Assembly (NCBI RefSeq): GCF_014280195.1
Contig: NZ_CP047960.1
Coordinates: 570,001 to 602,000 of the forward strand
DNA from: Synechococcus sp. A15-24
GTDB taxonomy: Bacteria; Cyanobacteriota; Cyanobacteriia; PCC-6307; Cyanobiaceae
Reading direction: 5' to 3'
Length of the DNA stretch: 32,000 bases
Part shown: positions 4,384 to 32,000 of the stretch, one piece after another
How the letters are laid out: every line of letters starts with the position of its first letter
How positions within the stretch are numbered: position 1 is the first letter of the stretch
Made by a program: the position numbers and the translations under genes
The notes under the pieces: model-generated
The model's database searches: none
Seen by the model: the letters and a program-made list of their open reading frames with translations, nothing else
Told to the model about the DNA's origin: nothing

Positions 4384-5187
4384 TCACCAAAGATCTGCAT
4401 TCAACCCCTCGTTTTCATCATTGTTATCGGATGATGAAATACTTTCTTCCTCAACTTCGTTGTCAAGGGCATCATCTTCTGGGATGTCCTTGATGTTGGC
4501 AATGTACCAGCTTTGACACGCCTCAAGGCTTCCGGTGTGAGCGATCTTGCCCTTGTGAAGAACAACACCATCTTGGCAGTGCTGCTGCAAAATGTTGGAA
4601 TCAGTGTGCGCCATGATCAATGACTTTCCCGTAAGACGCTCTCGCAGTGCCTGTTGAAGCTTCAGCAAACGCTCTGATGTGGCATCTGCTTTCCAGGCAA
4701 AAATCTTGGGAATGATATAAACATCAAAATCGAAAGCCAGGGCAACAGCGAGATAAAACCTTGCCCGCATGAACTTGTTGTAAACATGCAGAGGTTTATC
4801 AAAAAAACCTTCCTCAAGATCAGCCAAGGTTTGAATGATCTCGAGATCTTTGCTCCGCTGGCCGCCATGGCCATAGACACCTTGGAGGAAGGCGGCATTC
4901 TGTCGGCCCGTCAACGAACTCAGCAACCCGCCTCGAACACCGAGAGGCCAGCTGACGTTGGTGTTGATCGTTACCTGGCCTTTCTGTACAGATGCAACGC
5001 CGGCTGCGCACTCCAGAAAGGCATGGGCTTCTCGCATGGATGAGGAGATCACCCCCACCCGCTGACCTTCCAGTAATTGCCAAGTGACGTCATTGAGCAA
5101 ACGTTTGGTTGTTTCTTTGCTGCCGCTGACGTCTCGCACCACGCTCTCCAGGCTGAGGAGTGGTCGGGTTGGAGAAGCGAGCATCAT
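4384..5187 (-). CDS. kpsT: KpsT-like polysaccharide-export ABC nucleotide-binding protein with all catalytic motifs degenerate (pseudo-ATPase)
   Basis: 267-aa ORF with KpsT/Wzt-type blocks VSWPLGVRGGLLSSLTGRQN, YNKFMRARFYLAVALAFDFDVYII and SLIMAHTD. Walker A, the Q-loop Gln, the signature SGG and the Walker B D-E are all replaced. It has an acidic C-terminal tail and lower GC than its neighbours. Confidence 0.7.
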   Translation of the reverse strand: MMLASPTRPLLSLESVVRDVSGSKETTKRLLNDVTWQLLEGQRVGVISSSMREAHAFLECAAGVASVQKGQVTINTNVSWPLGVRGGLLSSLTGRQNAAFLQGVYGHGGQRSKDLEIIQTLADLEEGFFDKPLHVYNKFMRARFYLAVALAFDFDVYIIPKIFAWKADATSERLLKLQQALRERLTGKSLIMAHTDSNILQQHCQDGVVLHKGKIAHTGSLEACQSWYIANIKDIPEDDALDNEVEEESISSSDNNDENEGLNADLW

Positions 5188-6260
5188 CCTTGGGAGAAAC
5201 CCTTCTGGCCGGTCTTGACGGTATCGGCGATCAACTGGTCACGTAAAGCTTTGAGTTGACTGCTCTCCCAAGACTGCTGATCCGATGAGATGTCGGGTGG
5301 CAGGTTTTCGGGTTGTGGAGGGAAGAAGTCATCCCACTGCATCGTTGGCCAGAAGCATTGGCAGAAGTCCCTATTCGTCTGCCCGTAGCGATGCCGAATA
5401 GTCGCTCTAAGCTCAGCGTCAAGGCCGTTAAAGGGCTCTTCGGGCCAACGTCGCTCTTTAGCGAGGACCTCGATCGCGTTTCTCAATGCTTTCTTGTGTT
5501 GTCGAAGACATAGTGGGTTCTGTTCAGCACAATAGTTATTGATTGCTTGAGCCAAGGCCACGCCAAGGCGCCCTGGTTGCTGGTTCTTTGAGCGAGCCGG
5601 TAGAGATTGTTCGGCGAGTTTCGCCGGCAGTGGAAGCTCCGCAAGCAGTTGTTCATAGGGGTCAGGCCGTTCGTGGATCGATCGACCATTGAGGTTTTGT
5701 GCGGAACCAAAAGGGATCATTACAGTCTCGATTGAGGGTTCGTCCTTGAGCCAGCTGAACAACGTCATCAAGTCACACTCACTGATGGTGTTCTCGTTCA
5801 TCACTTTCGTCACATACGACTTGAAGTCGACATAAACTTTCAAACGTTTGACCAGTTGGGTGTAACGGGAGTTGAGGTAGCTCTCCTGGTCACGGATAAA
5901 GCCAACGATCTTTAAGCGCCATCCCTGAGACTGCAATTTTTTGGCTAACCAAAGCCCTCTGGGGTGGAGGTTGTCTTTCCCTGGTTTTGTAAGGACCCAG
6001 GACAAAGCTTCATGGGAGACAAGCAGTTGACACTCCATGGCGTCTGCCCGATCCAGCCAACGACGCCATTGTTTCCACGATCCTTTCTTGGTCGCTTGGA
6101 GCAGGATCTTGTCCTGGCGTCTTCGAGCAGGCATCAGTAAACCATGGCGTCGCAGCAGTCCACGGTTTTTGCGCAGGCGCTTCTGGATGTAGGTCGAGGC
6201 GGTCTTGTGCATGCCCACATGCAGCACCACAGTTCGCTCGACGGTTGGCTGCGCGGACAT
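5184..6260 (-). CDS. Sulfotransferase-like P-loop protein (hypothetical, polysaccharide-modification type)
   Basis: Start assigned to the internal ATG at 6260 (MSAQPTVERTVVLHVGMHKTASTYIQ...). The GMHKTAST motif resembles the PAPS 5-prime-phosphosulfate binding loop of sulfotransferase-family proteins. Its stop overlaps the kpsT-like start (ATGA at 5184-5187). The track ORF extends to 6722, but that part runs antisense to the HEAT gene and is Arg/Pro/Ser-rich. Confidence 0.55.
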   Translation of the reverse strand: MSAQPTVERTVVLHVGMHKTASTYIQKRLRKNRGLLRRHGLLMPARRRQDKILLQATKKGSWKQWRRWLDRADAMECQLLVSHEALSWVLTKPGKDNLHPRGLWLAKKLQSQGWRLKIVGFIRDQESYLNSRYTQLVKRLKVYVDFKSYVTKVMNENTISECDLMTLFSWLKDEPSIETVMIPFGSAQNLNGRSIHERPDPYEQLLAELPLPAKLAEQSLPARSKNQQPGRLGVALAQAINNYCAEQNPLCLRQHKKALRNAIEVLAKERRWPEEPFNGLDAELRATIRHRYGQTNRDFCQCFWPTMQWDDFFPPQPENLPPDISSDQQSWESSQLKALRDQLIADTVKTGQKGFSQG

Positions 6261-6334
6261 GAGCGACTCAACGGTGGTTGAATTCTCCCCGATCGACTTG
6301 TTCGTGCGGTGGTTTGTCGCTTTACGATCCGAGT

Positions 6335-7144
6335 ATGAGCGAAAGCGACTCCACGAAACGCGATCAGGGGTTGTCCAGCCTTTCACTGGATCCAGATTTG
6401 CTGGCGGAAGAGCTGGCCGCTGAACAGGACATCGACCCCCTTGATGCGATCGAGCCCGAGGAGTCACAGATCGACTCCCAGGGTGTGGCCAGGGCATGTG
6501 ATCAAGGGCTGGTTTGGCTTCAGCAGGGGCATGACCAGCGACTTCAAGGGTTGAGGATTTTCTGCGAGCACCGGGATCCCCGTGCTGTTCCTCTCCTGCT
6601 CGATTTGTTGAAGCGGCCTTGCCCGGTAGAACGGATGAGTGCCGTTTATGCCCTGGGTCGTAATCCGTCTCCTCCTGCTGTCGAGCCGTTGCTGAGCCTG
6701 CTCCAATCCGATGGCAATGCATACGTTCGCAAGGCCTCGGCCTGGAGCCTGGGAAATTATCCGGATGCTCCGATCCTCAATCCGTTGATACGAGCGCTGC
6801 AGGCCGATGTGGCGGCGGTGCGGATCTGGTGCCCTGGGTCTCTGGCTGAAGCCGGGAGCCGATCACCGGCCAAGGCCGATCCCGCAGCCGGTCAACTCTT
6901 GGTCAGTCTCTCCATCGATAGCGAGCCCGTGGTGCGTAGCAACAGCATCTGGGCGCTTGGTCGTCTTTACGAGCAACTGGTGGCTCCCAGGCAACTGGAG
7001 CTGGTGGAGGCACTGGTGTCTGCTCTGCTCCACGACGGTGAGGTATCTGTCCGCGATGAGGCCCGCACAGCCCTTGAACAACTGGAAGATCCGAGTGTTC
7101 TTGAACGATTGCAGACCTTGATCGATGAAGGCTTCCTGAGCTGA
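6335..7144 (+). CDS. HEAT-repeat protein (PBS-lyase HEAT-like repeats)
   Basis: Repeated A-V-x-A-L-G/R-x-A-x-x-L-G units (RMSAVYALGRNPSPPAVEPLLSLL, YVRKASAWSLGNYPDAPILNPLIRAL, VVRSNSIWALGRL, VRDEARTALEQL). The first ATG in frame is at 6335; the track start at 6278 is a TTG. Confidence 0.8.
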   Translation: MSESDSTKRDQGLSSLSLDPDLLAEELAAEQDIDPLDAIEPEESQIDSQGVARACDQGLVWLQQGHDQRLQGLRIFCEHRDPRAVPLLLDLLKRPCPVERMSAVYALGRNPSPPAVEPLLSLLQSDGNAYVRKASAWSLGNYPDAPILNPLIRALQADVAAVRIWCPGSLAEAGSRSPAKADPAAGQLLVSLSIDSEPVVRSNSIWALGRLYEQLVAPRQLELVEALVSALLHDGEVSVRDEARTALEQLEDPSVLERLQTLIDEGFLS

Positions 7145-19642: not shown

Positions 19643-21040
19643 TCAGCGGTGGGGTGAGGCCATCGTGGCTGGATCGATCAACTGGTCAAACCGTTCGCCT
19701 GTGATCGCTCCGGATTGCATCGCGGCCTCCCGAAGCGTCAGTCCGTCTCGGTGGGCGTGCTGGGCGATCGCACAGGCTTTTTCGTAGCCGATCTCCGGCG
19801 TCAAAGCCGTCACCAGCATCAGGGATCGCTCCACGTAGAACGCGATCCGGTCACGGTCTGGTTCCATCCCGCTCACCAGATTCAGCCGGAAACACCGGCA
19901 GGCGTCCTGCAGCAGACGGATCCCCTCGATCAGGTTGAAGCCGATCAGGGGCTTGTAGACGTTCATCTGCAGATGCCCCCCAGCACCAGCCGCCGCCACG
20001 GCTGCATCCATGCCGATCACCTGGGTGCAGACCATGGCCATGGCCTCGCACTGGGTTGGATTCACCTTGCCCGGCATGATTGAGCTGCCCGGTTCATTGG
20101 CGGGCAACAGCAGTTCCCCTAGCCCAGCCCTGGGTCCGCAGGCCAGCAGGCGGATGTCATTGGCGATGGTGAGCAGCGTCACGGCCAGACGCCGCAGCTG
20201 AGCCATGGTCTGCAACAGGGCGTCATGGCCCGCCATCACGGCAAACAGGTTGTTCGCCGGCTGAAAGTCTGATCCCGTTCGGCTGGCGAGTTCAGCACAA
20301 ACCTCGTCGGCAAATCGGTCCGGCGTGTTTAAACCACTGCCGACGGCTGTGCCTCCGAGTGGCAGAGCCAGAAGGTCTTGATGGGCTGTGGTCAGCCAAT
20401 GGACGCCGTCGCTGAGTCGGTCGCGCCAGGCGCTGACTTCATCGCTAAGTCGCAGCGGTACTGCGTCCTGCAGATGGGTCCGCCCGATCTTGATTATGTC
20501 CTGCCAGGCATCGGCCTTGGCATCGAGACTCGCGATCAGCCGCTTCAGCTCTGGCAGCAGATCCTGCTGCAGCTGTAGAGCCGCAGCCACATGGATCGCT
20601 GCCGGGAAAACGTCATTTGTGGACTGGGACCGGTTGATGTGGTCATTGGGATGGAGGGGACGGTGCGAGCCGAGGCTCTCTCCGGAGTGCAGAGCAGCGA
20701 GGTTGCTGATCACCTCATTCACGTTCATGTTCGTCTGCGTGCCGCTGCCGGTCTGCCAGACACTCAGAGGAAAGTGGTCATCGTGCTGGCCTGTGTGGAT
20801 CGCCTGGCCCGCCCGTTCGATCAAGGCCACCTGTTGGTCGTTCAACAGACCATGGCGACCGTTCACAGCCGCGCAGCACTGTTTGATCCGTGCCAGGGCA
20901 TGAATCAGCTCCGCTGGAATCTTTTGATGACCGATGGCGAAGTTGTTGAGGGATCGCTGGGTCTGGGCTCCCCAGAGCGCTGCAGCGGGGACGTCGACAG
21001 CTCCCATGCTGTCGTGCTCCTGCCTCATCGGTTGGCCCAT
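19643..21040 (-). CDS. fumC: Class II fumarate hydratase (FumC)
   Basis: Fumarate lyase signature GSSIMPGKVNPTQCEA and N-terminal DSMGAVDVPAAALWGAQTQRS. The start is ATG 21040 or 21028. The track start at 21085 would overlap the divergent neighbouring gene. Confidence 0.92.
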   Translation of the reverse strand: MGQPMRQEHDSMGAVDVPAAALWGAQTQRSLNNFAIGHQKIPAELIHALARIKQCCAAVNGRHGLLNDQQVALIERAGQAIHTGQHDDHFPLSVWQTGSGTQTNMNVNEVISNLAALHSGESLGSHRPLHPNDHINRSQSTNDVFPAAIHVAAALQLQQDLLPELKRLIASLDAKADAWQDIIKIGRTHLQDAVPLRLSDEVSAWRDRLSDGVHWLTTAHQDLLALPLGGTAVGSGLNTPDRFADEVCAELASRTGSDFQPANNLFAVMAGHDALLQTMAQLRRLAVTLLTIANDIRLLACGPRAGLGELLLPANEPGSSIMPGKVNPTQCEAMAMVCTQVIGMDAAVAAAGAGGHLQMNVYKPLIGFNLIEGIRLLQDACRCFRLNLVSGMEPDRDRIAFYVERSLMLVTALTPEIGYEKACAIAQHAHRDGLTLREAAMQSGAITGERFDQLIDPATMASPHR

Positions 21041-21074
21041 TTGAGAATGCCGATCCCAATCGACAATCGTATGC

Positions 21075-21638
21075 ATGCCCTTCACCTGCCTCGCTGAGGC
21101 CAGTCATTGCTGCACGGTTGTGCTGCCCGGTGGCGAGAAGGCTGTGCTGCGGAGGTTTTTCCGGCGCCCGAAGCGATCAATGGCCGCCCTGCTCACCCGA
21201 CAGCGGATGGACTGCAAGGGCGATGGTCGCTTCCTCTACGCATCGCGGCCGTTTCAGCTCCTGCGATTTGAAATCAGGCCAGAGGTGCTGTTTGCCGCGC
21301 AGTGGTCGGATCAAGCCAAGGGGCTGGAGATTGCCTTTGAGGACTGCCGGATTCATGGCCTTGGCGCCATGCAGAACGCCATCCGCTTCGAGTGCACGGC
21401 GTTGCTTGTCCCCAAGCAGGAGGGTGTGGAGGCTCAGGCTCGAGCGGTGGTTCTTTTGTCGTCGGACAGTCCGTTGACTGCGCTGCCGACTGGCCTGCGC
21501 CAACGTTTGGCTACGCAGGCGTTGCAGCTGGTGTTTGCGCGGCTGGAGCGACGCTGCCAGGGCGGGCTGAAACGGGCCTTGCTGGATTGGATTGCGGAGG
21601 ATGCAATGGGGCGTGCTGATCTCAAGCGTGAGAGTTAA
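21075..21638 (+). CDS. Conserved cyanobacterial hypothetical protein (DUF1997-like)
   Basis: 187-aa ORF with core-like GC content. The family name is recalled from sequence style (GRFLYASRPFQLLRFEIRPEVLFAAQW) and was not verified. Confidence 0.55.
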   Translation: MPFTCLAEASHCCTVVLPGGEKAVLRRFFRRPKRSMAALLTRQRMDCKGDGRFLYASRPFQLLRFEIRPEVLFAAQWSDQAKGLEIAFEDCRIHGLGAMQNAIRFECTALLVPKQEGVEAQARAVVLLSSDSPLTALPTGLRQRLATQALQLVFARLERRCQGGLKRALLDWIAEDAMGRADLKRES

Positions 21639-21661
21639 AGTCTTGCGACCAATCCGGTGAC

Positions 21662-22483
21662 ATGAGCAAAATGCGAGCCGGATTTGTCGATCAGATCAAG
21701 TCAAGACTTGATCGCCTTTGGTTGCAAATCAGAATCGTTCTCGCGCTTTCTGAGACGGAGTTCGTCCTTAGGGCTGAAAAGGGATCCTTCGGTGTTTGGG
21801 GTGTCTTGTTTGAACCCTTGGCGTTGATGATGACCTTGTTAGCACTCAGGATTTTGATTCGGTTGAAGTCCACTGATTTGCTGAGTCCAGTGATCTGGCT
21901 TGCTTGCGGGATCGCACTTCTATATATGTTCAGAAAAATAGGAATCAAGGCATTAACAGGTGTTTCGAAGCGTCAGAAATTCTTTTTTTACCGTCGAATT
22001 CGTCCCCTGGACACGTTGTTAGCGTCGGCCTTGATTGAAGCCAGAATTCATGGTTCTATTCTGGTTTTGGTCTTCATTAGTGTTTCGTTTTGGAGTTGGC
22101 AGTTCAAGCTGGATGATCCAGCACTTGTTCTTATTGATTTCATTCTCACGATTGCTCTTGGCTTGGGGGTTGGCATCAGTGCTTTGGTGATCGGTCACCG
22201 CATCCCGATTGTTAAAACATTGACGAAATTCGGGATTAATCGATTGTTGCTTTGGACCTCTGGAATTTTTTATGCTACCTACACACTTCCTGGGCCGATA
22301 CGTCCACTAGTGACGTGGAACCCACTGCTTCATTCGGTTGAGTTGCTGCGACATGGAATTAATGTGGCCTATCCAATACCTGGAATCAGTCTGCAGTATC
22401 TGTTTGCGTGTAGTTCACTGAGCTGCGGGTTTGGACTACTGTTCTATTTCCTCAACGAGGCTCTCCTGCTCGCCGATGACTGA
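21662..22483 (+). CDS. kpsM: Capsule/polysaccharide-export ABC-2 permease (KpsM-like)
   Basis: 273-aa six-helix ORF with KpsM-type blocks RPLDTLLASALIEARIH and WNPLLHSVELLRHGI. Confidence 0.82.
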   Translation: MSKMRAGFVDQIKSRLDRLWLQIRIVLALSETEFVLRAEKGSFGVWGVLFEPLALMMTLLALRILIRLKSTDLLSPVIWLACGIALLYMFRKIGIKALTGVSKRQKFFFYRRIRPLDTLLASALIEARIHGSILVLVFISVSFWSWQFKLDDPALVLIDFILTIALGLGVGISALVIGHRIPIVKTLTKFGINRLLLWTSGIFYATYTLPGPIRPLVTWNPLLHSVELLRHGINVAYPIPGISLQYLFACSSLSCGFGLLFYFLNEALLLADD

Positions 22484-23699
22484 ACAGCCGCGTGTCAAAC
22501 GGACGGCCGGAATTTTTCCGAAACTCGGAGAAGGAGCTTCCTGGTTCGGTAACTCCTCAGATGATCCCTCCAGTTCAGACACGTCACAGCTCCGCTCTGG
22601 GCTACAGGGATCGTTGAAAGGTCTGATGAATTCGGGAACCTTGGCTGCTGCTTTTGTCGTCCTCTCGGCGATGTATTGCTTTGGTGTGGGCCGTGATCGC
22701 TATCAAGCGACGTCCGAATTTGTCATCAAGCAGCCGCTGCCCCCGGCTTCAGCCTCCACCATGGTTCTTGGCTCGATGCAGAGCTCCAGCGTGCTCTCGT
22801 CTCTGGAGGACGGTCGTTATTTGCAGGTTTACCTGAAATCCAATGCTGTGAAGCAGGCGGTTTTCCCTGATCCATCTGCGTTTAAGAGGACCTATGCACC
22901 TCAGGCTCCAGATCAATGGAGTGGCTTACGTCGTGATGCCAATGACCAGGAGCAGCTTGCTTTCTTCCGCCAGCAGCTCGATGTGATTCCCCAGGAACTC
23001 TCAGGGACCATCGTTCTATCCACAAGTGCGTTCACCGCAGACGATGCCTATCGCCTCAATTCCGATCTTCTGAAACAGTCGCAGCGCTTCGTTAATGAGG
23101 TGAATCAGTCGATCAGTGCGGATCAACAGAAGTTTGCTGAGGAGCAGGTGGCCTTCGCGAAGACCCGTCTCACCACGGCCACCAATGCGCTTGAAGCTTT
23201 TCAGGATCTTTACGGACAACTGGATCCTTTGGGAGAACAGACGGCTACCACTGGCTTCATTACTGGCTTGGAATCTCGGCTGGTTGATCTGAAGGTTGAG
23301 GAAGCCAGTCTTCGACGCCAGTTCCGTGATCCCAATGCTCCAGAGGTTGCTTTTGTCGCAGACCAAGTACGTGAGCTCGAGCGACAGATTCAGGAAGAGC
23401 GCCAAAAGGCCGTTGGAGCCGGGGGACGTGATCTGAACAAACTTGCTACGCAAGCCAGTCGCCTCCAAGGAGATGTGGATTTTGCACGGGAATCCTTGAG
23501 TTCAGCCATGCGTGCGGCTGACAACAGCAGGATGGAAAGCCAGCGTCAGCTGAAATTCATCGTGATGCTGAGCAAGCCGCAGATGCCCACCGGCCCTGAA
23601 ACGTCATGGCGTTGGAAGGCCTTTCTGTCATGCCTGGGTGTTTTGATTGTGGTCTGGGGCGTTGGAGGATTCATGTTGACGGCATTACGGCGTTATTAA
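22476..23699 (+). CDS. kpsE: Capsule polysaccharide export inner-membrane adaptor (KpsE-like, PCP-3 type)
   Basis: ATG 22476 overlaps the kpsM stop by 8 nt. It has an N-terminal helix followed by RYQATSEFVIKQ, a long coiled central region, and a C-terminal LSKPQMPTGP block plus a final helix, as in KpsE. Confidence 0.75.
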   Translation: MTEQPRVKRTAGIFPKLGEGASWFGNSSDDPSSSDTSQLRSGLQGSLKGLMNSGTLAAAFVVLSAMYCFGVGRDRYQATSEFVIKQPLPPASASTMVLGSMQSSSVLSSLEDGRYLQVYLKSNAVKQAVFPDPSAFKRTYAPQAPDQWSGLRRDANDQEQLAFFRQQLDVIPQELSGTIVLSTSAFTADDAYRLNSDLLKQSQRFVNEVNQSISADQQKFAEEQVAFAKTRLTTATNALEAFQDLYGQLDPLGEQTATTGFITGLESRLVDLKVEEASLRRQFRDPNAPEVAFVADQVRELERQIQEERQKAVGAGGRDLNKLATQASRLQGDVDFARESLSSAMRAADNSRMESQRQLKFIVMLSKPQMPTGPETSWRWKAFLSCLGVLIVVWGVGGFMLTALRRY

Positions 23700-23705
23700 A
23701 GTTTT

Positions 23706-23722
23706 AGAGTATTCAATACTCT
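23706..23722. terminator. 17-nt perfect palindrome agagtattcaatactct, 7 nt after the kpsE stop; possible terminator hairpin or operator
   Basis: agagtatt and aatactct are exact reverse complements around a central c, followed by ttta. It lies in the 168-nt AT-rich convergent gap between kpsE and the 979-aa glycosyltransferase gene. Confidence 0.3.
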
Positions 23723-23867
23723 TTATACAGATCGGTTGTATTTTGTTTTTGAGTTCAATGGATAGCCATATTGGGTTTAAGGATAAGAATGATTCCCATA
23801 CGAGCTTATAGATTAAAGTTTCTTGCGGAACGTTTTTGTCTCGTTTGGTAAGTTGAGCGTTTATTAT

Positions 23868-26807
23868 TCAATTATCTTGCTGTACTCGTGTTAGCCCTTC
23901 AAGATAATTTTCGATTTGTCGCGCTAATCGACGATTGCCGCGACGAATGGTTTCCTTCCAGTCTTTAATGTCTACCTCATGAGGGTTGTCTCGAAGCAAG
24001 CTAACCTTGATGAAGGGGAACTCATGATCCTCAATGAGTGATTTCCACTCAGCATGAAGAATATTGCCATTGGCATTTTTTGAATAAAGGCTTTCAAGAT
24101 TCATCCCATTCTCTTTGAGAAGGACAGAGAGTCCGACCTCATAGTTTTTGACAATGCTGCGTTTTTCATCCCAACACATTATGTTGTCCCAGAATTGCCA
24201 GAATGACGGACAAGAAACAGCGCGACGTTTAAACATTAGAAATGCAGATTGTAGATGGGGTTCGTACATGAGATTGTCCGTTAAACCAATCACATCCGCT
24301 TGGCTATTGGCAAGGCGATTGATCAGGCCGGTGAGGGGACGAATCGGACCCCAAAAACTATCGTTACAGAGCAATACAGACTTTCTTTGATCGATTAGAT
24401 CGCGACAAAACCTTAGACCAGTCATCCAGCTGCCAAAGTCATATCCTTCATTACCTCGAATGATTAGAGCATCGCTAACATTCTTAAGAGCTGCCAAATC
24501 ATGGTGGTGTTGCAACAACGATGGTGTCGCAGCAACGACTTGAATATAAAAATGGCGTCTGTACTTCCTTAACAGATCAAGAATGTCAGAGCGTATTGGT
24601 TTGTCAGGATTGGAGTCATATTGCGCAAATATCAGTGGTATGCGTTGGTCATTTGTTCTTAATGAACGCCTCCAGGTGAATAACACTGCTTCTCGTGCTG
24701 GCCTGAGAGGCACCACTTGTTTCAGGAGTGGTTCGTATCTCGTTGAATGATGATGAAGGAGGGGGCTGATTAATGGATCACCTTTCGCATAAATTGTTTT
24801 GTGCTTTTGGCGAAGGCGTCCTGATTCGCGTTGATGCCGTGCCCAAGCATATCCAACTTGATCCTTCCCACGACTGAGTGACTCATAGTGAGTGATTGAT
24901 GCATGTGGCGTCACAACAATGGCACCCCCTGCATCCCTGAGTCTGAGGCAAAGGTCGACATCATTAAAGACAACGGCGAGTTTTTCATCAAATCCACCAA
25001 CGAGGTCAAAACACTCGGCTTTCACCATCAAACAGGCTGCAGAGGCTGCGGAGAACTCTTCTTGTGTTCTGAGAGGTAGAAGGCTGGCTATGACCTCTTG
25101 CTCGTTAAGGTGCTTACCTGGTTCAAGAACGCAACGACGCTCTCCTGGAATAATGACAACTCCTTGATGTTGAATGCTTCCATCGGGATAATTAAGCCTT
25201 GAGCCGACGGCAACAGTTTTAGGGTGTGCAAAGGGATCTAGAAGTGCATTAAGGACACTTCCGGAGATAAATTCGATATCATTGTTGAGGAATAGCAGAA
25301 AATCTCCTCTACATAATTGGCGGGCTTTGTTGTTTAGTCGTGAGTAATTAAATTCTTCGTCGAGACGAATGCATTGAATATTGTCTTCCTCGATAACATC
25401 TCTTATCCATTCTTTTGTTGAATTTTTTGCGCTTCCGTTGTCAATTAGAACGATTTCATAATTACGATTTTTACCGGCATTAAGCTTGATCGAATTAACA
25501 CATGCCCTAGTTAATTCTACTTGATCTCTAAATGGAATCAATATGGAAATCAAGGATGATTTATCTGTAGGACGAGACAAGTCATGGCATCCTACCTGTA
25601 ACGGGTTGGGCTTGATTCCCCTCTCTATTCCAAAATATTGTTTGGCATGCTGACTTCTGATACGACCGATCTCATCTAATTGCTGATCACTCAATGGACA
25701 TCTTTCCCTGGGCCAGCCTTGTTCAGGTATTGAAGGATTCTGAGAGCTTTGATGCTTGACGAGTGCTATATGACAGTGGGTCGTCTTGATCGGATCGCGA
25801 GTTGTCTGTAGAAGTATGTCCAGACGTAATGCTTCTAGGCAGGTATAACTTGGAGCAAATTTACACCGCCTTAATTGAGAATAAGGTAGCGTTAGAAGTC
25901 CTCCAATGCCTCCGCGGGTACACAGACGAATGGCTGACACTGGGCTTCGGTATTGCCGATGTTCATATCCGAGCCCATCATTCCAAAGTTGGTAAACAAT
26001 AATGTCATCGCAGGTCAACACAGTGTCCGCTTTTGTTTGTTGGAGTTGTCCCGCTAAAGCATGTAGGGCTCCATTGGCCAAGATATCGCTGGCATGACAA
26101 ATAGTGATCCACTCTGCAGAGTTTTCTCTTAGCAGATTTGATAAAGAATTCATATTTGTCAAAGAGCAAGAAACCACATCGTTCCAACCACCTACAACAG
26201 CTAGAGATTGTGCTTGCTGTGTTGTTCCATCAATCACTAAAAGTAGATGCTTTGTTGTTAAAATCAAGGATTTTATTGTGGGTAACTTTGTTGGATGATA
26301 TCGATCAAGGCCTGTCGCAACAGATTCTTGCCGACGGAAATGATCCCACCCCTCCGTCGCGAGATGTTCGAGCAAAGAGATTTTATTAGTGCGTCTGATT
26401 TGTCTCTGTGTTTTGTTCAGGCCTGCGTCGTAGGCTCCAATGGGTATTGGCGGTAGATCTCCGTAAAGAGACAGATGACCATTTAAAATCTGATTCAGCG
26501 TCCCACTCACTAGTAACTCATTGATTGATGAGAGGTGCCGATGTTGAAGTAGTAAGGGGATTTTTTGAATTCCATCTTCCAGTGGGTTCCATGTTGTTGG
26601 CTCCAACAGTAGGGAGATGGGTAAATATCTTGGGTTAAGTAGATGAGAGTCTAAATAATCGTGCAAGCTTGCAAGATCTGATTTGATTAAATTAAGATCT
26701 ATGCCGATACGTTTGAATAGTCTGAGTTGTTTTTGTATAGAGCCAACAGAGATTCTTCCCTTTCTCCAATCTTGAAAAGATTTTGACCAGTGATCGTTGG
26801 GATTCAT
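23868..26807 (-). CDS. 979-aa three-domain glycosyltransferase: degenerate GT2-like, GT2, and RgpF-like (rhamnan synthesis F) domains
   Basis: The central GT2 domain reads ISILIPFRDQVELTRACVNSI...IVLIDNGS...FLNNDIEF...GSIQHQGVVI...FNDVDLCLRL. The C-terminal domain, with NEGYDFGSWMTGL and LQSAFLMFKR, resembles the RgpF family. An N-terminal region of about 400 aa has GT2-like remnants but lacks the catalytic motifs. Confidence 0.8.
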   Translation of the reverse strand: MNPNDHWSKSFQDWRKGRISVGSIQKQLRLFKRIGIDLNLIKSDLASLHDYLDSHLLNPRYLPISLLLEPTTWNPLEDGIQKIPLLLQHRHLSSINELLVSGTLNQILNGHLSLYGDLPPIPIGAYDAGLNKTQRQIRRTNKISLLEHLATEGWDHFRRQESVATGLDRYHPTKLPTIKSLILTTKHLLLVIDGTTQQAQSLAVVGGWNDVVSCSLTNMNSLSNLLRENSAEWITICHASDILANGALHALAGQLQQTKADTVLTCDDIIVYQLWNDGLGYEHRQYRSPVSAIRLCTRGGIGGLLTLPYSQLRRCKFAPSYTCLEALRLDILLQTTRDPIKTTHCHIALVKHQSSQNPSIPEQGWPRERCPLSDQQLDEIGRIRSQHAKQYFGIERGIKPNPLQVGCHDLSRPTDKSSLISILIPFRDQVELTRACVNSIKLNAGKNRNYEIVLIDNGSAKNSTKEWIRDVIEEDNIQCIRLDEEFNYSRLNNKARQLCRGDFLLFLNNDIEFISGSVLNALLDPFAHPKTVAVGSRLNYPDGSIQHQGVVIIPGERRCVLEPGKHLNEQEVIASLLPLRTQEEFSAASAACLMVKAECFDLVGGFDEKLAVVFNDVDLCLRLRDAGGAIVVTPHASITHYESLSRGKDQVGYAWARHQRESGRLRQKHKTIYAKGDPLISPLLHHHSTRYEPLLKQVVPLRPAREAVLFTWRRSLRTNDQRIPLIFAQYDSNPDKPIRSDILDLLRKYRRHFYIQVVAATPSLLQHHHDLAALKNVSDALIIRGNEGYDFGSWMTGLRFCRDLIDQRKSVLLCNDSFWGPIRPLTGLINRLANSQADVIGLTDNLMYEPHLQSAFLMFKRRAVSCPSFWQFWDNIMCWDEKRSIVKNYEVGLSVLLKENGMNLESLYSKNANGNILHAEWKSLIEDHEFPFIKVSLLRDNPHEVDIKDWKETIRRGNRRLARQIENYLEGLTRVQQDN

Positions 26808-27712
26808 TGTTTTTTCTTGCTTGCCAGTTTGAGAAGTCGTCGTACTACTGCAGGGAATAGCCCCTCTTTGTCAGAAGTTATGACTTCTAATTGTCTTTTT
26901 TCTTCGCTCATGTTCGTTCCGGAATCTTCAGTTACAACCTCATCATGATCACCTCTTACATTATGATCTTCTATCTCTGGCTTATTAGATATCGGTTGAA
27001 CCGATAAGGATTCTTTTAACTCCTTATTCTCTTCTACAAGCAGCGCATATTTAGCTCTTTGTTTTCTTAGAGACTTTTGTAGTCGTTCGTTTTCCCGCGC
27101 AAGGTACTCATAGTTATTTTGGATCTGTGCTAATTGATTTAAATTATTTTTCAATTCTTCAAAACTTGCTTCGCGGTCTAGGTTGACCTCCCACCAGTCC
27201 ATGAGTGCGAGATCAATCAATGAGCCTTGGCTTAACCTTTGTAGATAGTTGCTGTCAGCTTCCAGACCAAACAAGCATGATTTCAGTTCTAGATCAAGGT
27301 AAATATCGATAATTCTTGGTTCTTTTCTCGCAATCTCTAGGCTTAGTAAGCTGGAAAGGGGCTTTGGGCTAGGGAAGTTAATACTTTTGTCTAGCTGTGG
27401 ATTCTCACCATTACAAAGTCTTATGATCGATGTACTGTCAAGCGAATTCAGGCGCCAGCTTGACGAAATATGTTTGTATTTTGCAGATAACAAGGATAAC
27501 TCTTCGTAATATGCGCGAATTTCATTGCATGTTGTTGCGGTGCTTTCTTCAAGTCGTTTTTGTTCAAGCACTTGATTGGGCGCCGAATAAATTAATAGCA
27601 CATTTTGAGGTTCATTGTCAGAATTGACTGATGTAAGTGGCTTGAGTCCTGCTTTGGCTAGTTTGTCTTTTAGAGATGAAAGAATATTTGTTGTCGAATA
27701 CCAGTACTGCAT
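26804..27712 (-). CDS. Hypothetical protein with a C-terminal coiled coil, ATGA-coupled to the 979-aa glycosyltransferase
   Basis: ATG 27712 (MQYWYSTTNILSSLKDK...). It has a heptad-like stretch FEELKNNLNQLAQIQNNYEYLARENERLQKSLRKQRAKYALLVEENKELKESL. Its stop overlaps the glycosyltransferase start at 26804-26807. No family recognised. Confidence 0.6.
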   Translation of the reverse strand: MQYWYSTTNILSSLKDKLAKAGLKPLTSVNSDNEPQNVLLIYSAPNQVLEQKRLEESTATTCNEIRAYYEELSLLSAKYKHISSSWRLNSLDSTSIIRLCNGENPQLDKSINFPSPKPLSSLLSLEIARKEPRIIDIYLDLELKSCLFGLEADSNYLQRLSQGSLIDLALMDWWEVNLDREASFEELKNNLNQLAQIQNNYEYLARENERLQKSLRKQRAKYALLVEENKELKESLSVQPISNKPEIEDHNVRGDHDEVVTEDSGTNMSEEKRQLEVITSDKEGLFPAVVRRLLKLASKKKQ

Positions 27713-27738
27713 TTGATTCCTGATCCTTACACGCAGTC

Positions 27739-27744
27739 TATAAT
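27739..27744 (+). promoter_or_regulatory. Consensus -10 hexamer TATAAT in the 54-nt divergent control region
   Basis: A perfect TATAAT lies 22 nt upstream of ATG 27767. A TTGATT -35-like hexamer at 27713-27718 has a 20-nt spacer, which is longer than ideal. Confidence 0.3.
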
Positions 27745-27766
27745 GCAGAACGCTCCTGAAGCTCAC

Positions 27767-29359
27767 ATGACGTCCAGTCTATGCCTGAGTGTTTTAGTAG
27801 GCTGTCCAGTTTCACCAACGCAGCTCCCGGAAGGCCCTTGTTTGATCATTGATGCTGAGTCAATCGATAAGAAGGAATTGATTGCTCAGGAATCCTTTTA
27901 TGCACATTATCGTGAATTGTCGGCCGACGATGTAGTACTTCTCAATCAGACGGTGATATCAGAATTTGATCATCAGATTGTTGAATGGCATAACTTCTCA
28001 GACAGGCGATTCAATGGACCTTCTCAATTATCAGAGTTTTCCGAACAATATCCAAATCTAAGATTAATTGAAAGCAGGAAGATTGAAGGTATCACTCTTT
28101 CTACTGTATTGGTAGATCAAAAAATTCTATCCGATTCACTTTCAACCTTTCAGCTCATTTTACGTGAGGGTGATCCGTTAGTTGCTCTTCAAAGTGCGAA
28201 GGAGTGGTTGGCCCGATGTACTCGTATCTCTTTGCGTGGTTTAGTCACTAGCTCTAAATCTCGTGAGGCTGCTGAGGCATTTTTGGGGGCATCGGGCTTT
28301 TGCAAATCATCGGTTGATTCATGTGTATGGACTCCTGAGCTTGAGGTGTCGTCACTGCATCTATCCTTAATCAGATGTGGTTTGTTGGCCTTATTTAATG
28401 CTGATGTCTATCGAAAATTATATCCTCAGACGAAGGAAATGACAGATGTTGAGCTGATTAACCACTGGTTATCACAGCCTGATTTTCGAGAGATCGCCAA
28501 GGAGATCGACAAGAATACCCACAATTCATTAGATAGAGATGGAATATTGGCCTTATTTAATGCTGATGTCTATCGAAAATTATATCCTCAGACGAAGGAA
28601 ATGACGGATGTTGAGCTGATTGACCACTGGTTATCACAGCCTGATTTTCGAGAGATCGCCAAGGAGATCGACAAGAATACCCACAATTCATTAGATAGAG
28701 ATGGAATATTGGCCTTATTTAATGCTGATGTCTATCGAAAATTATATCCTCAGACGAAGGAAATGACGGATGTTGAGCTGATTGACCACTGGTTATCACA
28801 GCCTGATTTTCGAGAGATCGCCAAGGAGATCGACAAGAATACCCACAATTCATTAGATAGAGATGGAATATTGGCCTTATTTAATGCTGATGTCTATCGA
28901 AAATTATATCCTCAGACGAAGGAAATGACGGATGTTGAGCTGATTGACCACTGGTTATCGCAGCCTGATTTTCGAGATGTATCTAAATTAATGAATGATG
29001 CTATTCAGCGTAACCCAACTCCTCTTGCTGAATTGACGGACCAAGATCCCGTACTTCAGTTGTTGCATAATATTTTCCCTTTTGATTTTTATCGCTCTCA
29101 AAGATCAGATCTCTCACAGATCTCCAACAGAGAGTTGATCCATCACTATTGGACAAATGGGCAATATGAGGGAATTGATCTCTCGGAATCAAATGTCAAA
29201 AATGTACTCGATAAAGATCAATCTTTGCAGGTCAACCGTCTCACGACTCGTATCCATGAACTAGAGCATCTTTTATCGTGCGCCAACGCACAGATTAGTG
29301 CAATGCAGAAGTTGATTGTTAGTTCACGAGATTCGGGAGCTGCCAATGAACAAGACTGA
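27767..29359 (+). CDS. Hypothetical protein with 3.7 tandem 54-aa repeats and a C-terminal coiled coil
   Basis: ATG 27767 (alternatives at 27743 and 27713). The layout is a roughly 205-aa N-domain, then repeats of LALFNADVYRKLYPQTKEMTDVELIDHWLSQPDFREIAKEIDKNTHNSLDRDGI, a degenerate copy (FPFDFYRSQRSDLSQISNRELIHHYWTNGQYEGIDLS), and a coiled coil (RLTTRIHELEHLLSCANAQISAMQKL). Confidence 0.7.
   Translation: MTSSLCLSVLVGCPVSPTQLPEGPCLIIDAESIDKKELIAQESFYAHYRELSADDVVLLNQTVISEFDHQIVEWHNFSDRRFNGPSQLSEFSEQYPNLRLIESRKIEGITLSTVLVDQKILSDSLSTFQLILREGDPLVALQSAKEWLARCTRISLRGLVTSSKSREAAEAFLGASGFCKSSVDSCVWTPELEVSSLHLSLIRCGLLALFNADVYRKLYPQTKEMTDVELINHWLSQPDFREIAKEIDKNTHNSLDRDGILALFNADVYRKLYPQTKEMTDVELIDHWLSQPDFREIAKEIDKNTHNSLDRDGILALFNADVYRKLYPQTKEMTDVELIDHWLSQPDFREIAKEIDKNTHNSLDRDGILALFNADVYRKLYPQTKEMTDVELIDHWLSQPDFRDVSKLMNDAIQRNPTPLAELTDQDPVLQLLHNIFPFDFYRSQRSDLSQISNRELIHHYWTNGQYEGIDLSESNVKNVLDKDQSLQVNRLTTRIHELEHLLSCANAQISAMQKLIVSSRDSGAANEQD
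28385..28978 (+). repeat. Tandem direct repeat, 162-bp unit x 3.67 copies, in frame within a CDS
   Basis: Units start at 28385, 28547, 28709 and 28871. Copies 2 and 3 are identical over 162 nt. Copy 1 differs at 2 positions (one synonymous, one N/D). Partial copy 4 (108 nt) differs at 1 position. Confidence 0.97.
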
Positions 29360-30647
29360 TCAGATACTTGCCTGTCGTGTCTTGGTGAATGATTATTTAT
29401 CAGGAAGATGGCAGAATGTTATCAATACAGTCTGTTCGCTGAACGATTCAGCGGAATTTGATAACTGTTCCACTCTTCGTGACCTCGCGCGACTTCTTTT
29501 AAGTTTATCTCCTTCAGAAATTTTGAAGGAGGATTGGAAGCCTGCTTTAGTGTCGCAGCGCGCCTCTTTTACTGAAGCACGTCTTCGGTACTGCGCAACT
29601 CATTTACTTGGTGCTTGCAATAATCTTGCGTGCAGAAATGATCAACAATATAGCTACAAGCTTCAATTATTTTGCATTAGCTTAAGCGACTTGCTCAAGT
29701 CTGATGCTGATTTTATACTTGTTTCTGATATATTTTCATTTTCCGACTCTTTCATATCCCTCAGTCAAAGTATTCGTATATTCTATTTGGCTTATAGGCG
29801 TCGTTTGCATGAGTCATTTCCTCAACAGATGACGGTTGTTTTAGGGATGCACCGTAGTGGAACATCAGCGTTAACTGGACTGCTTGGTAATTTAGGCATT
29901 TCAGGACCTAAGGATCCATTAGGTGCCACGGAAAATAATCTGTTGGGATACTGGGAATCAACTTCTTTAGTTACTTCTTCTGATCGATTTTTGTTATCTC
30001 AAAATAGCCATTGGTCCCAACTTTACCACTGGTCTTTTGGTTGGTGGAAATCAGCGGCGGCTCTAGACTGGATTGATTCTTATTGGCACGATTTGCAAAA
30101 TGCTTACAATACGAATGAACACTTCGTCTTGAAAGATCCTCGCCTTTGTATTCTGCTCGAGGGCATAATTCCATGCCTAGTTGATTCGCTACTGCAGTTA
30201 GATTTTTTGTTGATATTGCGCTCTCCTGTTGAGGTTGTTATGTCCTTGTGTAAGGCAGAGGAAATTTCTCCATACGATGCTCTTAATTTGTGGATCGGAT
30301 CAGTATTTCGCGCAGAATGTAGTTCACGTCCGTATTCTCGCAATATTCTCACGTACTACCAGCTCCTTAGTAGGCCACAAACTATTTTGGATTCATTCGG
30401 CTTGAACTGGAATCAAAGCTTTATGGAATCCAGGCTTGATCAAGCAACATCCTTTTTAAAGACTTCATTGTATCGAACCAAGGTTGATAACGTAAGGGAA
30501 TCGTTCGTGGCAACAAATCCTGAGTTGACTAGTCTTCTTGTTTTGGCTGAACAGATTTTTGATTGTTTTCAACATCCAACCCCAGACATTGCTCGTACAT
30601 CAGAGAAATTAAGGTACCAGTGGGTCGAAATCTTGGCAGATCGTTAG
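29346..30647 (+). CDS. Sulfotransferase-family protein with an N-terminal domain of about 170 aa and unknown function
   Basis: ATG 29346 overlaps the upstream stop by 14 nt. The PAPS-binding-loop-like motif VVLGMHRSGTSALTGLL is followed by YWES and later FVLKDPR (3-prime-phosphate binding-like), typical of bacterial sulfotransferase-family proteins. Confidence 0.65.
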   Translation: MNKTDQILACRVLVNDYLSGRWQNVINTVCSLNDSAEFDNCSTLRDLARLLLSLSPSEILKEDWKPALVSQRASFTEARLRYCATHLLGACNNLACRNDQQYSYKLQLFCISLSDLLKSDADFILVSDIFSFSDSFISLSQSIRIFYLAYRRRLHESFPQQMTVVLGMHRSGTSALTGLLGNLGISGPKDPLGATENNLLGYWESTSLVTSSDRFLLSQNSHWSQLYHWSFGWWKSAAALDWIDSYWHDLQNAYNTNEHFVLKDPRLCILLEGIIPCLVDSLLQLDFLLILRSPVEVVMSLCKAEEISPYDALNLWIGSVFRAECSSRPYSRNILTYYQLLSRPQTILDSFGLNWNQSFMESRLDQATSFLKTSLYRTKVDNVRESFVATNPELTSLLVLAEQIFDCFQHPTPDIARTSEKLRYQWVEILADR

Positions 30648-30675
30648 CAAACTCTTCTGTAAATAACTTTGCAGC

Positions 30676-32000
30676 TTACTGTCGCTGATAGTAATCTTTC
30701 ATCCTCCTGAAATTGGACCTCAGTTCAATTCCTTGCATAACGCTTTCTGGTGAAGTGTTGAAACTAAAATTTTCATGAATCTTTGTTAGATTTGGATTGT
30801 AAAATAAATCACTTGGTAGTTCCCCATTACTTTGAATGTCGTATTGATTTAGCATGAAGTTTATCTCTCTCTTGAACCGTTCTTTCTTCTCGGGAGAGTC
30901 CTCAGCTCCGCGGGATATTGATTCGTGGTGAAACAGCTCAGCATACGGGGTGAAAATATTTCGATATCCTCTTCCGTGAACCCTTATGCAAAAGTCGACA
31001 TCGTTAAATGCGATTGTGAGGTCTTGTTCATTGAGGCCGCCGACTTCGTTGAAAATTTCTCTGCGAATTGCGAGACATGCTGCAGTTACTGCTGTCATCT
31101 GTTGTACATATTGAAGCCTGTCGACATAACCAGGACTATCTCCCGGAAAGTATTTATGGGCATGACCGGCGACTTGGCCAATTCCAATAACTACGCCTCC
31201 ATGCTGAATAGTCCCATTTGAATAGTATAACTTTGCACCGACACATCCAACGTCTGGCCTTGAAGTGTGGGAAACAATTTCTTGGAGCCATTCGCCAGAT
31301 ATGACCTCGACATCATTATTGATCAAAGTAACAACATCTGCTTTTGATTGTCGGACTGCATAATTATTGATGGCCGAGTAGTTGAACTTCTTGTTGTATT
31401 TTATTATATTTATTTTTTCGCCATGCGCCCTCTTCAGTTTTTTGAATAGATTCTTCGTGGCGACTTCTTGGCTCTGGTTGTCAACAATTGTGATTGTGTA
31501 GTTCGTGTATGTCGTCTTGGCAATGATTGAATCCACTGCGAGATTCAATACCTCTGCTTGATCTCTAGTGGGGATGATGAGCTCAACAGATGGTGGCTTC
31601 TCTGATGTATGCCACTGGCAGGTGAATCGGTTCCTGGCCTTGATTCGGGCTGTCGCCCTTACGCCTCCACGTCGATGCTGCTCGTCTAGGAAATTCTGGA
31701 CTGCCTTGTGACCGCTTTCAGTTGTGTAATCCTTGCTGTCTGGGTTGCTGGCGGTTGATTCGGAATGTGCTCGCCAGTGGTACAAGACTCTAGGGATGTG
31801 AATAATTTGGTCCGGGGAAGATTCCAGGACAGTTCTGAGTGCAAGATCGTGATCTTGGCTTCCCTCGAAGCCAACTCGGAAGCCACCAATTTGTTTGAGG
31901 ATCTCCCTTCTGTAAACACCCAAGTGTGAGATAAAATTGTATGACAATAAAAGATCAATGTTAAAAGCTGGCTTGAAGTGTGGGCATGAACGCATTCCAT
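30676..32000 (-). CDS. Tandem-GT2 glycosyltransferase, N-terminus beyond the window edge
   Basis: The visible N-terminal part is the tail of one GT2 domain (GGFRVGFEGSQDHDLALR...IHIPRVLYHWR). A complete second GT2 domain follows (VELIIPTRDQAEVLNLAVDSI...ITIVDNQS...LINNDVEV...GTIQHGGVVIGIG...FNDVDFCIR). The frame is still open at 32000. Confidence 0.85.
   Translation of the reverse strand, partial: GMRSCPHFKPAFNIDLLLSYNFISHLGVYRREILKQIGGFRVGFEGSQDHDLALRTVLESSPDQIIHIPRVLYHWRAHSESTASNPDSKDYTTESGHKAVQNFLDEQHRRGGVRATARIKARNRFTCQWHTSEKPPSVELIIPTRDQAEVLNLAVDSIIAKTTYTNYTITIVDNQSQEVATKNLFKKLKRAHGEKINIIKYNKKFNYSAINNYAVRQSKADVVTLINNDVEVISGEWLQEIVSHTSRPDVGCVGAKLYYSNGTIQHGGVVIGIGQVAGHAHKYFPGDSPGYVDRLQYVQQMTAVTAACLAIRREIFNEVGGLNEQDLTIAFNDVDFCIRVHGRGYRNIFTPYAELFHHESISRGAEDSPEKKERFKREINFMLNQYDIQSNGELPSDLFYNPNLTKIHENFSFNTSPESVMQGIELRSNFRRMKDYYQRQ

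Follow-up and report, generated by a model that had tools for sequence, protein, structure and literature searches.

A recombining in-frame array of 54-residue modules in a polysaccharide-cluster protein of marine Synechococcus, with unit number differing between strains

Why should a gene of a marine picocyanobacterium carry nearly four copies of a 162-bp unit that are almost identical at the DNA level, and what might the number of copies mean for the encoded protein? This question is raised by a 32,000-nucleotide stretch of the genome of Synechococcus sp. A15-24 (NZ_CP047960.1, positions 570,001 to 602,000; hereafter the window, with coordinates counted from its first letter), in which such an array lies within the gene of an uncharacterized protein. 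The explanation that we consider probable as a whole is that the array is a genuine in-frame amplification of a 54-aa module, located in a conserved accessory protein that belongs to a polysaccharide cluster of clade III Synechococcus, with unit number driven by recombination and with a proposed effect on the glycan, the latter being a far more tentative part that is weighed separately below.

Tandem Repeats Finder recovers a single high-scoring array from the window, at 28385-28977 (period 162, 3.7 copies, 99% matches, 0 indels, score 1165), and base-by-base comparison places the four unit starts as listed in Table 1, with the period-162 stretch covering 593 nt, i.e. 3.66 copies. The unit start coincides with frame 0 of the open reading frame (ORF) 27713-29359, and the sequence-only reading, which had described an in-frame 162-bp repeat inside a coding region, proved right in every unit start and difference that it claimed. 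Units 2 and 3 match each other in full (162/162 positions), and unit 1 differs from them at just two, namely position 60 (G>A, synonymous, Thr) and position 76 (G>A, Asp>Asn). Unit 4 shows one difference in its first 107 nt (position 90, A>G, synonymous, Ser) and diverges completely thereafter. The window units are 97-100% identical, and four 162-nt copies at 98.8-100% identity cannot be a product of chance. We found no other repeat families in the region 21000-32000, no ORF of at least 60 aa on the opposite strand across the array, and nothing associated with the array in scans for Rfam families, tRNAs, promoters or terminators.

Comparison with other strains shows that the number of units is not constant. 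A homolog search over 5.8 billion proteins found 132 homologs, whose sources are without exception marine Synechococcus or marine metagenomes, and loci were obtained by exact-protein look-up (contig searches gave 0 loci with the single protein and 1 with the alignment). The homologs group by length into four classes (376, 430, 484 and 538 aa), corresponding to one to four motifs spaced 54 aa apart, plus start-codon variants, and in the alignment the classes differ solely in the number of 54-aa units. Among 124 alleles, one unit is found in 68, two in 47, three in 6 and four in 3. The strains WH8102 (SYNW0643), WH8103, RS9915 and A18-46.1 have a single unit, and A18-40, BOUM118 and A15-28 have two. 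Three units are seen in the MetaClust sequence P0291, which we take to be Sanger-era on our own assumption rather than on any tool result. A15-24 itself and the single-cell genomes GCA_902592305 and GCA_902574855 have four, and in one of these two single-cell genomes all four units can be told apart. Alleles with one to four modules coexist in clade III Synechococcus populations. The sequence-only reading had nominated the locus as length-variable, and between strains this is what we observe: isolates, single-cell genomes and MetaClust together span one to four units, near-identical flanks enclose different unit numbers, and the orthologs of related strains differ in unit number rather than being invariant. 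For instance, BOUM118 (two units) and WH8103 (one unit) are 99.2-99.5% identical over 7 kb and exactly one unit apart, with 0/618 and 3/381 differences in their coding flanks, and the same flanks show 0/618 and 2/381 differences between a two-unit and a three-unit allele (L010 and L006). At the protein level, flanks can be identical between alleles of one, two and three units.

The alleles also indicate how units are gained and lost. The outer two units of the three-unit allele L008 match their counterparts in L001, an allele with two units, and between them stands a unit that consists of the 5' 105 nt of the last unit joined to the 3' 57 nt (the linker) of the first, a composition that marks it as the expected product of an unequal crossover. 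The single unit of WH8103, which has the 5' markers of A18-40 unit 1 (C34, C49) followed by the 3' marker A69 and the tail of unit 2, reads as the reciprocal, deletion-type product. Likewise, judging from the markers at positions 60, 76 and 90 (Table 1), units 2 and 3 of the window follow unit 4 in their 5' part and unit 1 in their 3' part, which places the exchange between positions 76 and 90. A further allele, L012 (GCA_902574855, 3001-4617), is a four-unit mosaic in which two identical interior units are nearly of the window type, whereas the outer units and flanks come from another allele lineage, a composition that implies exchange between alleles within the array. Because the junction units in L008, WH8103, the window and L012 are hybrids, they show that units are gained and lost through unequal homologous recombination with one another, always with the reading frame preserved. 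The sequence-only reading had offered recombination or slippage as the route, and the hybrids favor the former and speak against the latter. The array of A15-24 would accordingly derive from a two-unit ancestor through two successive unequal exchanges. The expansion is very recent, since the window units are 97-100% identical and those within other alleles are 80-96% identical. The earlier suggestion of recent expansion or gene conversion holds in this light, the nearest sampled alleles being 3-7% diverged from the window in their flanks.

How firm is the count of four in A15-24 itself? Illumina reads of at most 250 nt, supplemented with 4-10 kb mate pairs, were assembled into the genome sequence, with manual finishing (PMC7522525). 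The marker single-nucleotide polymorphisms (SNPs) of unit 1 and unit 4 are ~500 nt apart, so that with reads of this length the number of identical interior units cannot be read through. Two points therefore have to be set against our interpretation: the interior count of two identical units rests on an assembly without spanning reads, and many of the copy-number calls in general are based on metagenomes assembled from short reads, a procedure in which repeats can be collapsed. The corresponding alternative is an assembly artefact or miscount: A15-24 may have some number of units other than four or, at worst, the array may in its entirety be a loop created by the assembler. It draws on the read length, the hand finishing and the unspanned interior units, as well as on the fact that metagenome contigs often break inside the array. 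Yet the hybrid type (G60, G76, A90) differs from both units 1 and 4, which implies at least three units in A15-24 if the SNPs are real. Moreover, two single-cell genomes, assembled independently, have four-unit alleles as well, in one case with units that can be told apart, which makes four units plausible, and a three-unit MetaClust allele also exists. We hence regard the artefact as improbable. The warning of the sequence-only reading about short-read assembly is a plausible one, in that several metagenome or database fragments start or stop inside the array and the source reads are short.

Given alleles that are nearly identical in their flanks and differ in their units, sequence comparison shows that unit number changes quickly in comparison with point substitution. 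When mapped onto a neighbour-joining tree built from the flanks, it requires at least 39 changes, as against ~45 with shuffled labels, an estimate that is biased upward to an unknown degree because short-read metagenome assemblies can collapse repeats, and that to this extent also detracts from our interpretation. A change that outpaces the accumulation of flank substitutions might suggest a contingency locus, in which unit number switches at high frequency inside clonal populations as in phase-like or size variation, and the fully identical units 2 and 3 do supply at least 324 nt of perfect homology, a good substrate for RecA. However, the comparisons at hand are between strains only, and the short tracts of classical contingency loci (1-8 bp) recombine much more frequently than repeats of 162 bp do. 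Furthermore, the units in most alleles are 4-20% diverged, and most alleles have therefore long been stable. A contingency locus is consequently an explanation that we think has little chance of being correct.

The host gene itself has several possible starts. In addition to the ATG used in Table 1, RefSeq begins at the ATG at 27767 (530 aa) and the mechanically called ORF at the TTG at 27713 (548 aa). The protein is a 100% match to WP_186498903, a 530-aa hypothetical protein of Synechococcus sp. A15-24. The ratio of nonsynonymous to synonymous substitution rates (dN/dS) is ~0.2 in the N-terminal domain, in the motif and in the C-terminal part alike, and because of this ratio, and because the ~130 homologs are all in frame, we can state that this is a real gene under purifying selection, motif included. 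Each 54-aa unit is composed of a conserved helical motif of ~36 aa (FNADVYRKLYPQTKEMTDVELIDHWLSQPDF) and an 18-aa linker, of which the linker evolves faster (mean dN 0.135 versus ~0.075 in the motif). The alignment identifies the tail after unit 4 as an old, diverged homolog of the linker, and a diverged copy of the motif lies further downstream; the recent amplification therefore sits atop an ancient duplication. These features bear on the main alternative, a neutral coding array in which unit number drifts by recombination and one to four modules are tolerated without a phenotype. The occurrence of all four states in otherwise near-identical alleles, the prevalence of one-unit alleles and the faster evolution of the linker would all be in keeping with it. 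In contrast, the motif in the units is under purifying selection comparable to that on the rest of the protein, a two-unit architecture is also kept in distant family members (e.g. P0121, P0124), and islands of the type that houses the gene are known for selection on the cell surface. Neutral drift nonetheless is a quite real, if minority, possibility.

The protein has three parts: an N-terminal domain, the variable helical modules, and a C-terminal helix. A full-length AlphaFold model has a predicted local distance difference test (pLDDT) score of 45 and is unusable for the geometry of the repeats. The N-terminal domain, modeled separately with AlphaFold2 from a 36-sequence alignment, is an alpha/beta domain (pLDDT 89.6, predicted TM score 0.85) without a sequence match in Pfam, NCBIfam or the PDB. 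Foldseek found no significant structural neighbor for it in the PDB, the best being class I methyltransferases (E=0.27, TM 0.35). We considered an origin from FkbM-like or class I methyltransferases, prompted by a resemblance by eye between 'QGDPLxxLxGA' and 'DVQGAEPLVxxG', and rejected it, as hhalign against FkbM gave a probability of 0.4%; none of the members had a Pfam methyltransferase match even at E <=10. In distant relatives the domain recurs N-terminal to GT2+GT1, WbsX+RgpF, CmcI/Methyltransf_24 and FkbM modules (P0142, P0149, P0161, P0196, P0209, P0225), with intervening segments that often resemble long coiled coils on visual inspection. When the profile of the domain was used for another homolog search, only 15 proteins were returned, and the gene context of two distant proteins with the domain was uninformative. 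The motif has the consensus FDxxFYRxxNPDLxxLxxxELxxHYLxxGxxEGR and, in an exhaustive profile search of 1.84 billion representatives, is widespread as a ~40-aa module that is repeated in tandem 3-13 times, at a period of 39-54 aa or more (P0141, P0188, P0190, P0207, P0213 and P0253 have multiple motifs). Its hosts are large proteins with GT1 or GT2 modules, RTX/serralysin-C or cadherin-like domains, and it has neither a Pfam model nor a solved structure. The C-terminal helix shows an a/d heptad pattern, V..L...I..L...L..A...I..M...I, plus the invariant block ELEHLLSCANAQ, and is probably a zipper for oligomerization or partner binding.

Searches of the PDB by sequence, with profiles of the whole protein, the N-terminal domain and the motif and with the downstream protein, gave chance matches only, and the literature on SYNW0643 and its neighbors yielded nothing relevant. 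The sole Pfam matches of the window protein above the cutoffs are RraB (PF06877) and DUF6368 (PF19895). We rejected both because their score accumulates over the repeats and the one-unit homologs have no Pfam match; for these as for STI1-DP and others, no single stretch passes, and the score merely sums weak matches of the individual units. The analysis thereby brings out two uncharacterized families that are absent from Pfam, the N-terminal alpha/beta domain and the repeat motif, both of which recur in proteins with glycosyltransferase or methyltransferase modules, the motif also in RTX proteins.

Table 1. Coordinates of the repeat units, the host gene and the neighboring genes in the window
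Feature	Position	Strand	Remarks
Repeat-protein gene	27743-29359	+	538 aa from ATG 27743; ortholog of WH8102 SYNW0643
N-terminal alpha/beta domain	27767-28384	+	~206 aa, uncharacterized family; AlphaFold2 model
Repeat unit 1	28385-28546	+	54 aa = 36-aa motif + 18-aa linker; A60, A76 (Asn), A90
Repeat unit 2	28547-28708	+	hybrid: G60, G76 like unit 4; A90 and linker like unit 1
Repeat unit 3	28709-28870	+	same as unit 2 at every position
Partial unit 4	28871-28977	+	motif alone (G60, G76, G90), then older diverged linker homolog RDVSKLMNDAIQRNPTPLAE
Older diverged motif copy	29075-29188	+	FPFDFYRSQRSDLSQISNRELIHHYWTNGQYEGIDLSE; nearest to the widespread consensus; profile matches at ~305-350 in many multi-repeat proteins
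C-terminal long helix	29186-29332	+	aa 474-522; heptads read from sequence; secondary structure from low-pLDDT model
ABC-2 (KpsM-like) permease	21662-22483	+	island start
BexC/CtrB/KpsE-family export protein	22431-23699	+	match 1e-50; island start
Glycosyltransferase, GT2 + RgpF rhamnan-synthesis domain	23868-26807	-	979 aa; family match
Divergent gene	26804-27712	-	302 aa; 30 bp upstream of repeat gene; coiled-coil-like stretch; no family match; synteny conserved
Downstream sulfotransferase-family gene	29346-30647	+	433 aa; ATG overlaps repeat-gene stop
Double-GT2 glycosyltransferase, C-terminal part	30676-31995	-	~800 aa; rest of gene past window end

The genomic setting gives further context. 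From ~21.6 kb on, the G+C content falls from the ~0.62 of the chromosome to 0.41-0.51, marking an island, and this drop, along with GT2/RgpF glycosyltransferases and KpsM/KpsE-like exporter parts as neighbors, bears out the placement of the array in a cell-surface glycan island by the sequence-only reading. Homologs of the 433-aa downstream protein (32-56% identity) carry the Sulfotransfer_3 domain (PF13469). Its ATG (29346) lies within the end of the repeat gene, the stop codon of which is at 29357-29359, resulting in a 14-nt overlap (29346-29359, ATGAACAAGACTGA) that is also called in loci fetched from other strains (L002, L006, L011). This conservation suggests that the two genes are translationally coupled. 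Synteny around the repeat gene is unchanged in every locus fetched, and in other strains the syntenic cluster runs on into dTDP-rhamnose (rml) genes. Based on the KpsM/KpsE-like exporter, the GT2+RgpF and double-GT2 enzymes, the dTDP-rhamnose genes and the sulfotransferase-family gene, the island can be assigned to the rhamnose-type polysaccharide clusters that depend on ATP-binding cassette (ABC) transporters, and its product is probably sulfated. A few additional observations pertain to these neighbors. A second patch of lower G+C content (0.53) lies at 4384-6722 on the minus strand, 15 kb from the island, and includes a Wzt/KpsT/TagH-like ABC ATPase (4384-5187, minus strand), which may be the missing ATPase of the exporter at 21662-23699. 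The adjoining ORF has VVLHVGMHKTASTYIQ, by eye a phosphate-binding loop of the sulfotransferase type. In A18-40 (L003 2102-5041, CP047956) two genes, encoding 653 aa and 290 aa, are called in place of the single GT2+RgpF gene, which may reflect disruption by a frameshift or nonsense mutation. In the window this gene contains two 17-bp copies of a further repeat (24505-24538, 88% identity), with a low score and probably due to chance.

Is the repeat protein exported, as its GenBank name, 'putative conserved secreted protein', would have it? Were it a secreted or surface-exposed repeat antigen like the streptococcal alpha C and Rib proteins, unit number would alter its antigenic size. Apart from the annotation, the N-terminal segment LSVLVGC resembles a lipobox, and the motif occurs in RTX-type secreted proteins as well. 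However, we rejected a lipoprotein or secreted N-terminus: a basic n-region is absent, and the cysteine is not conserved in the family of the N-terminal domain, where the position reads G-[CASV]-[PS]. In addition, the SVLVGC segment forms the first core beta-strand in the well-scoring model of this domain. The fusion of the domain to cytoplasmic glycosyltransferase and methyltransferase modules in its relatives, and the overlap with the sulfotransferase-family gene, also argue against secretion. On these predictions and comparisons the protein appears to be cytoplasmic, and we consider a surface antigen very unlikely.

What, then, might a variable number of modules do in such a protein? The layout of an N-terminal alpha/beta domain, a variable helical spacer and a C-terminal zipper, taken together with the overlap with a sulfotransferase-family gene and the ABC-transporter setting, resembles that of the terminator or scaffold proteins of ABC-dependent glycan assembly. 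By analogy, more or fewer units would alter the length of the spacer or the valency of the modules, this in turn would alter how long the chains of the surface glycan are or how they are modified, and the pressure of phages and grazers would select on the resulting trait. That module number has such a consequence is a tentative proposal, which we would place between unlikely and doubtful, because the protein has no detectable terminator catalytic domain, its coiled coil is short and the geometry of the repeats cannot be modeled. At the lower end of this range lies its most specific form, wherein the 54-aa modules are a recombination-adjustable spacer in a scaffold that controls chain length or termination along with the downstream sulfotransferase-family protein, such that gain or loss of modules, through the length or valency of the spacer, would reset the length or sulfation pattern of the glycan; this version is an unlikely one. 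Four considerations detract from the functional part of our explanation. The putative link between unit number and glycan is one of analogy; comparisons by PDB, Pfam, NCBIfam, Foldseek and hhalign detect no resemblance of the N-terminal domain to any known terminator enzyme; the C-terminal helix, at ~45-49 aa and with low model confidence, is far shorter than the ruler of WbdD; and the full-length model is uninformative as to whether the units form an extended rod.

Surface glycan islands are the main battleground of marine picocyanobacteria with phages and grazers, and their variation is known mostly as gene gain and loss or as point mutation. To these the array adds a third route, namely a frame-preserving change in module number by recombination that is faster than point substitution, in an uncharacterized and apparently cytoplasmic accessory protein of polysaccharide assembly in an ecologically dominant phototroph. 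If the spacer proposal is true, marine Synechococcus would have a fast, reversible and frame-safe means of surface variation under phage and grazer pressure, in the form of a naturally polymorphic 'molecular ruler' made of repeat modules in place of a coiled coil. If module number affects the glycan, the locus would offer a simple natural tuning knob, as well as a marker of clade III microdiversity that is easily sized by polymerase chain reaction. To our knowledge, no natural length polymorphism of a glycan ruler has been described. A practical warning also follows, in that short-read assemblies can miscount or break at the array.

Among known systems, in-frame coding arrays with variable numbers of tandem repeats (VNTRs) that change by recombination are well known; the host protein here is less ordinary. 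The array shares with the alpha C and Rib proteins of group B Streptococcus, and with the VNTR loci used in multiple-locus VNTR analysis, long near-identical in-frame DNA repeats, a unit number that differs from strain to strain, and gain or loss by homologous recombination with the frame kept. In keeping with this, its unit length is divisible by 3 within the ORF, its variation between strains lies between orthologous flanks, and its junctions are hybrids. Unlike alpha C and Rib, the A15-24 protein shows neither an export signal nor surface anchoring, is apparently cytoplasmic and belongs to a glycan-assembly cluster rather than being a surface antigen itself; its unit was amplified recently from a motif that is far older and widespread, and the variation is between strains. 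A second comparison is with coiled-coil ruler proteins, a hallmark of ABC-transporter-dependent glycan assembly in which a spacer sets the chain length (PMC11231755). The WbdD and WbbB rulers and K. pneumoniae ORF7-O4 and ORF6-O7 likewise belong to ABC-transporter-dependent clusters with multi-module glycosyltransferases and have the layout of globular domain, helical spacer and coiled-coil helix, to which the layout read here from sequence and models may correspond, the variable modules standing between the N-terminal domain and a helix with a heptad pattern that is modeled at low pLDDT. ORF7-O4 has a helical-repeat bundle ahead of its coiled coil (PMC11231755), and the repeat protein similarly has helical repeats before its putative coiled coil; the distant relatives of the N-terminal domain, with coiled-coil-like stretches leading into glycosyltransferase or methyltransferase modules, also recall the rulers. 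In contrast to WbdD and WbbB, the repeat protein has no recognizable terminator catalytic domain (methyltransferase, kinase or glycosyltransferase), a sulfotransferase-family protein being encoded instead by the overlapping downstream gene; its C-terminal coiled coil is short (~4.5 heptads), and helical modules in series would make up its spacer in place of one continuous coiled coil. Finally, SwmB and the repeat-rich giant genes of clade III Synechococcus represent repeated coding DNA of the same organisms that resists short-read assembly, as seen in the swmB gaps left in BOUM118 and RS9915 (PMC7522525). The two are unrelated, SwmB being a giant cell-surface motility protein and the repeat protein a 376-538 aa accessory of a glycan cluster.

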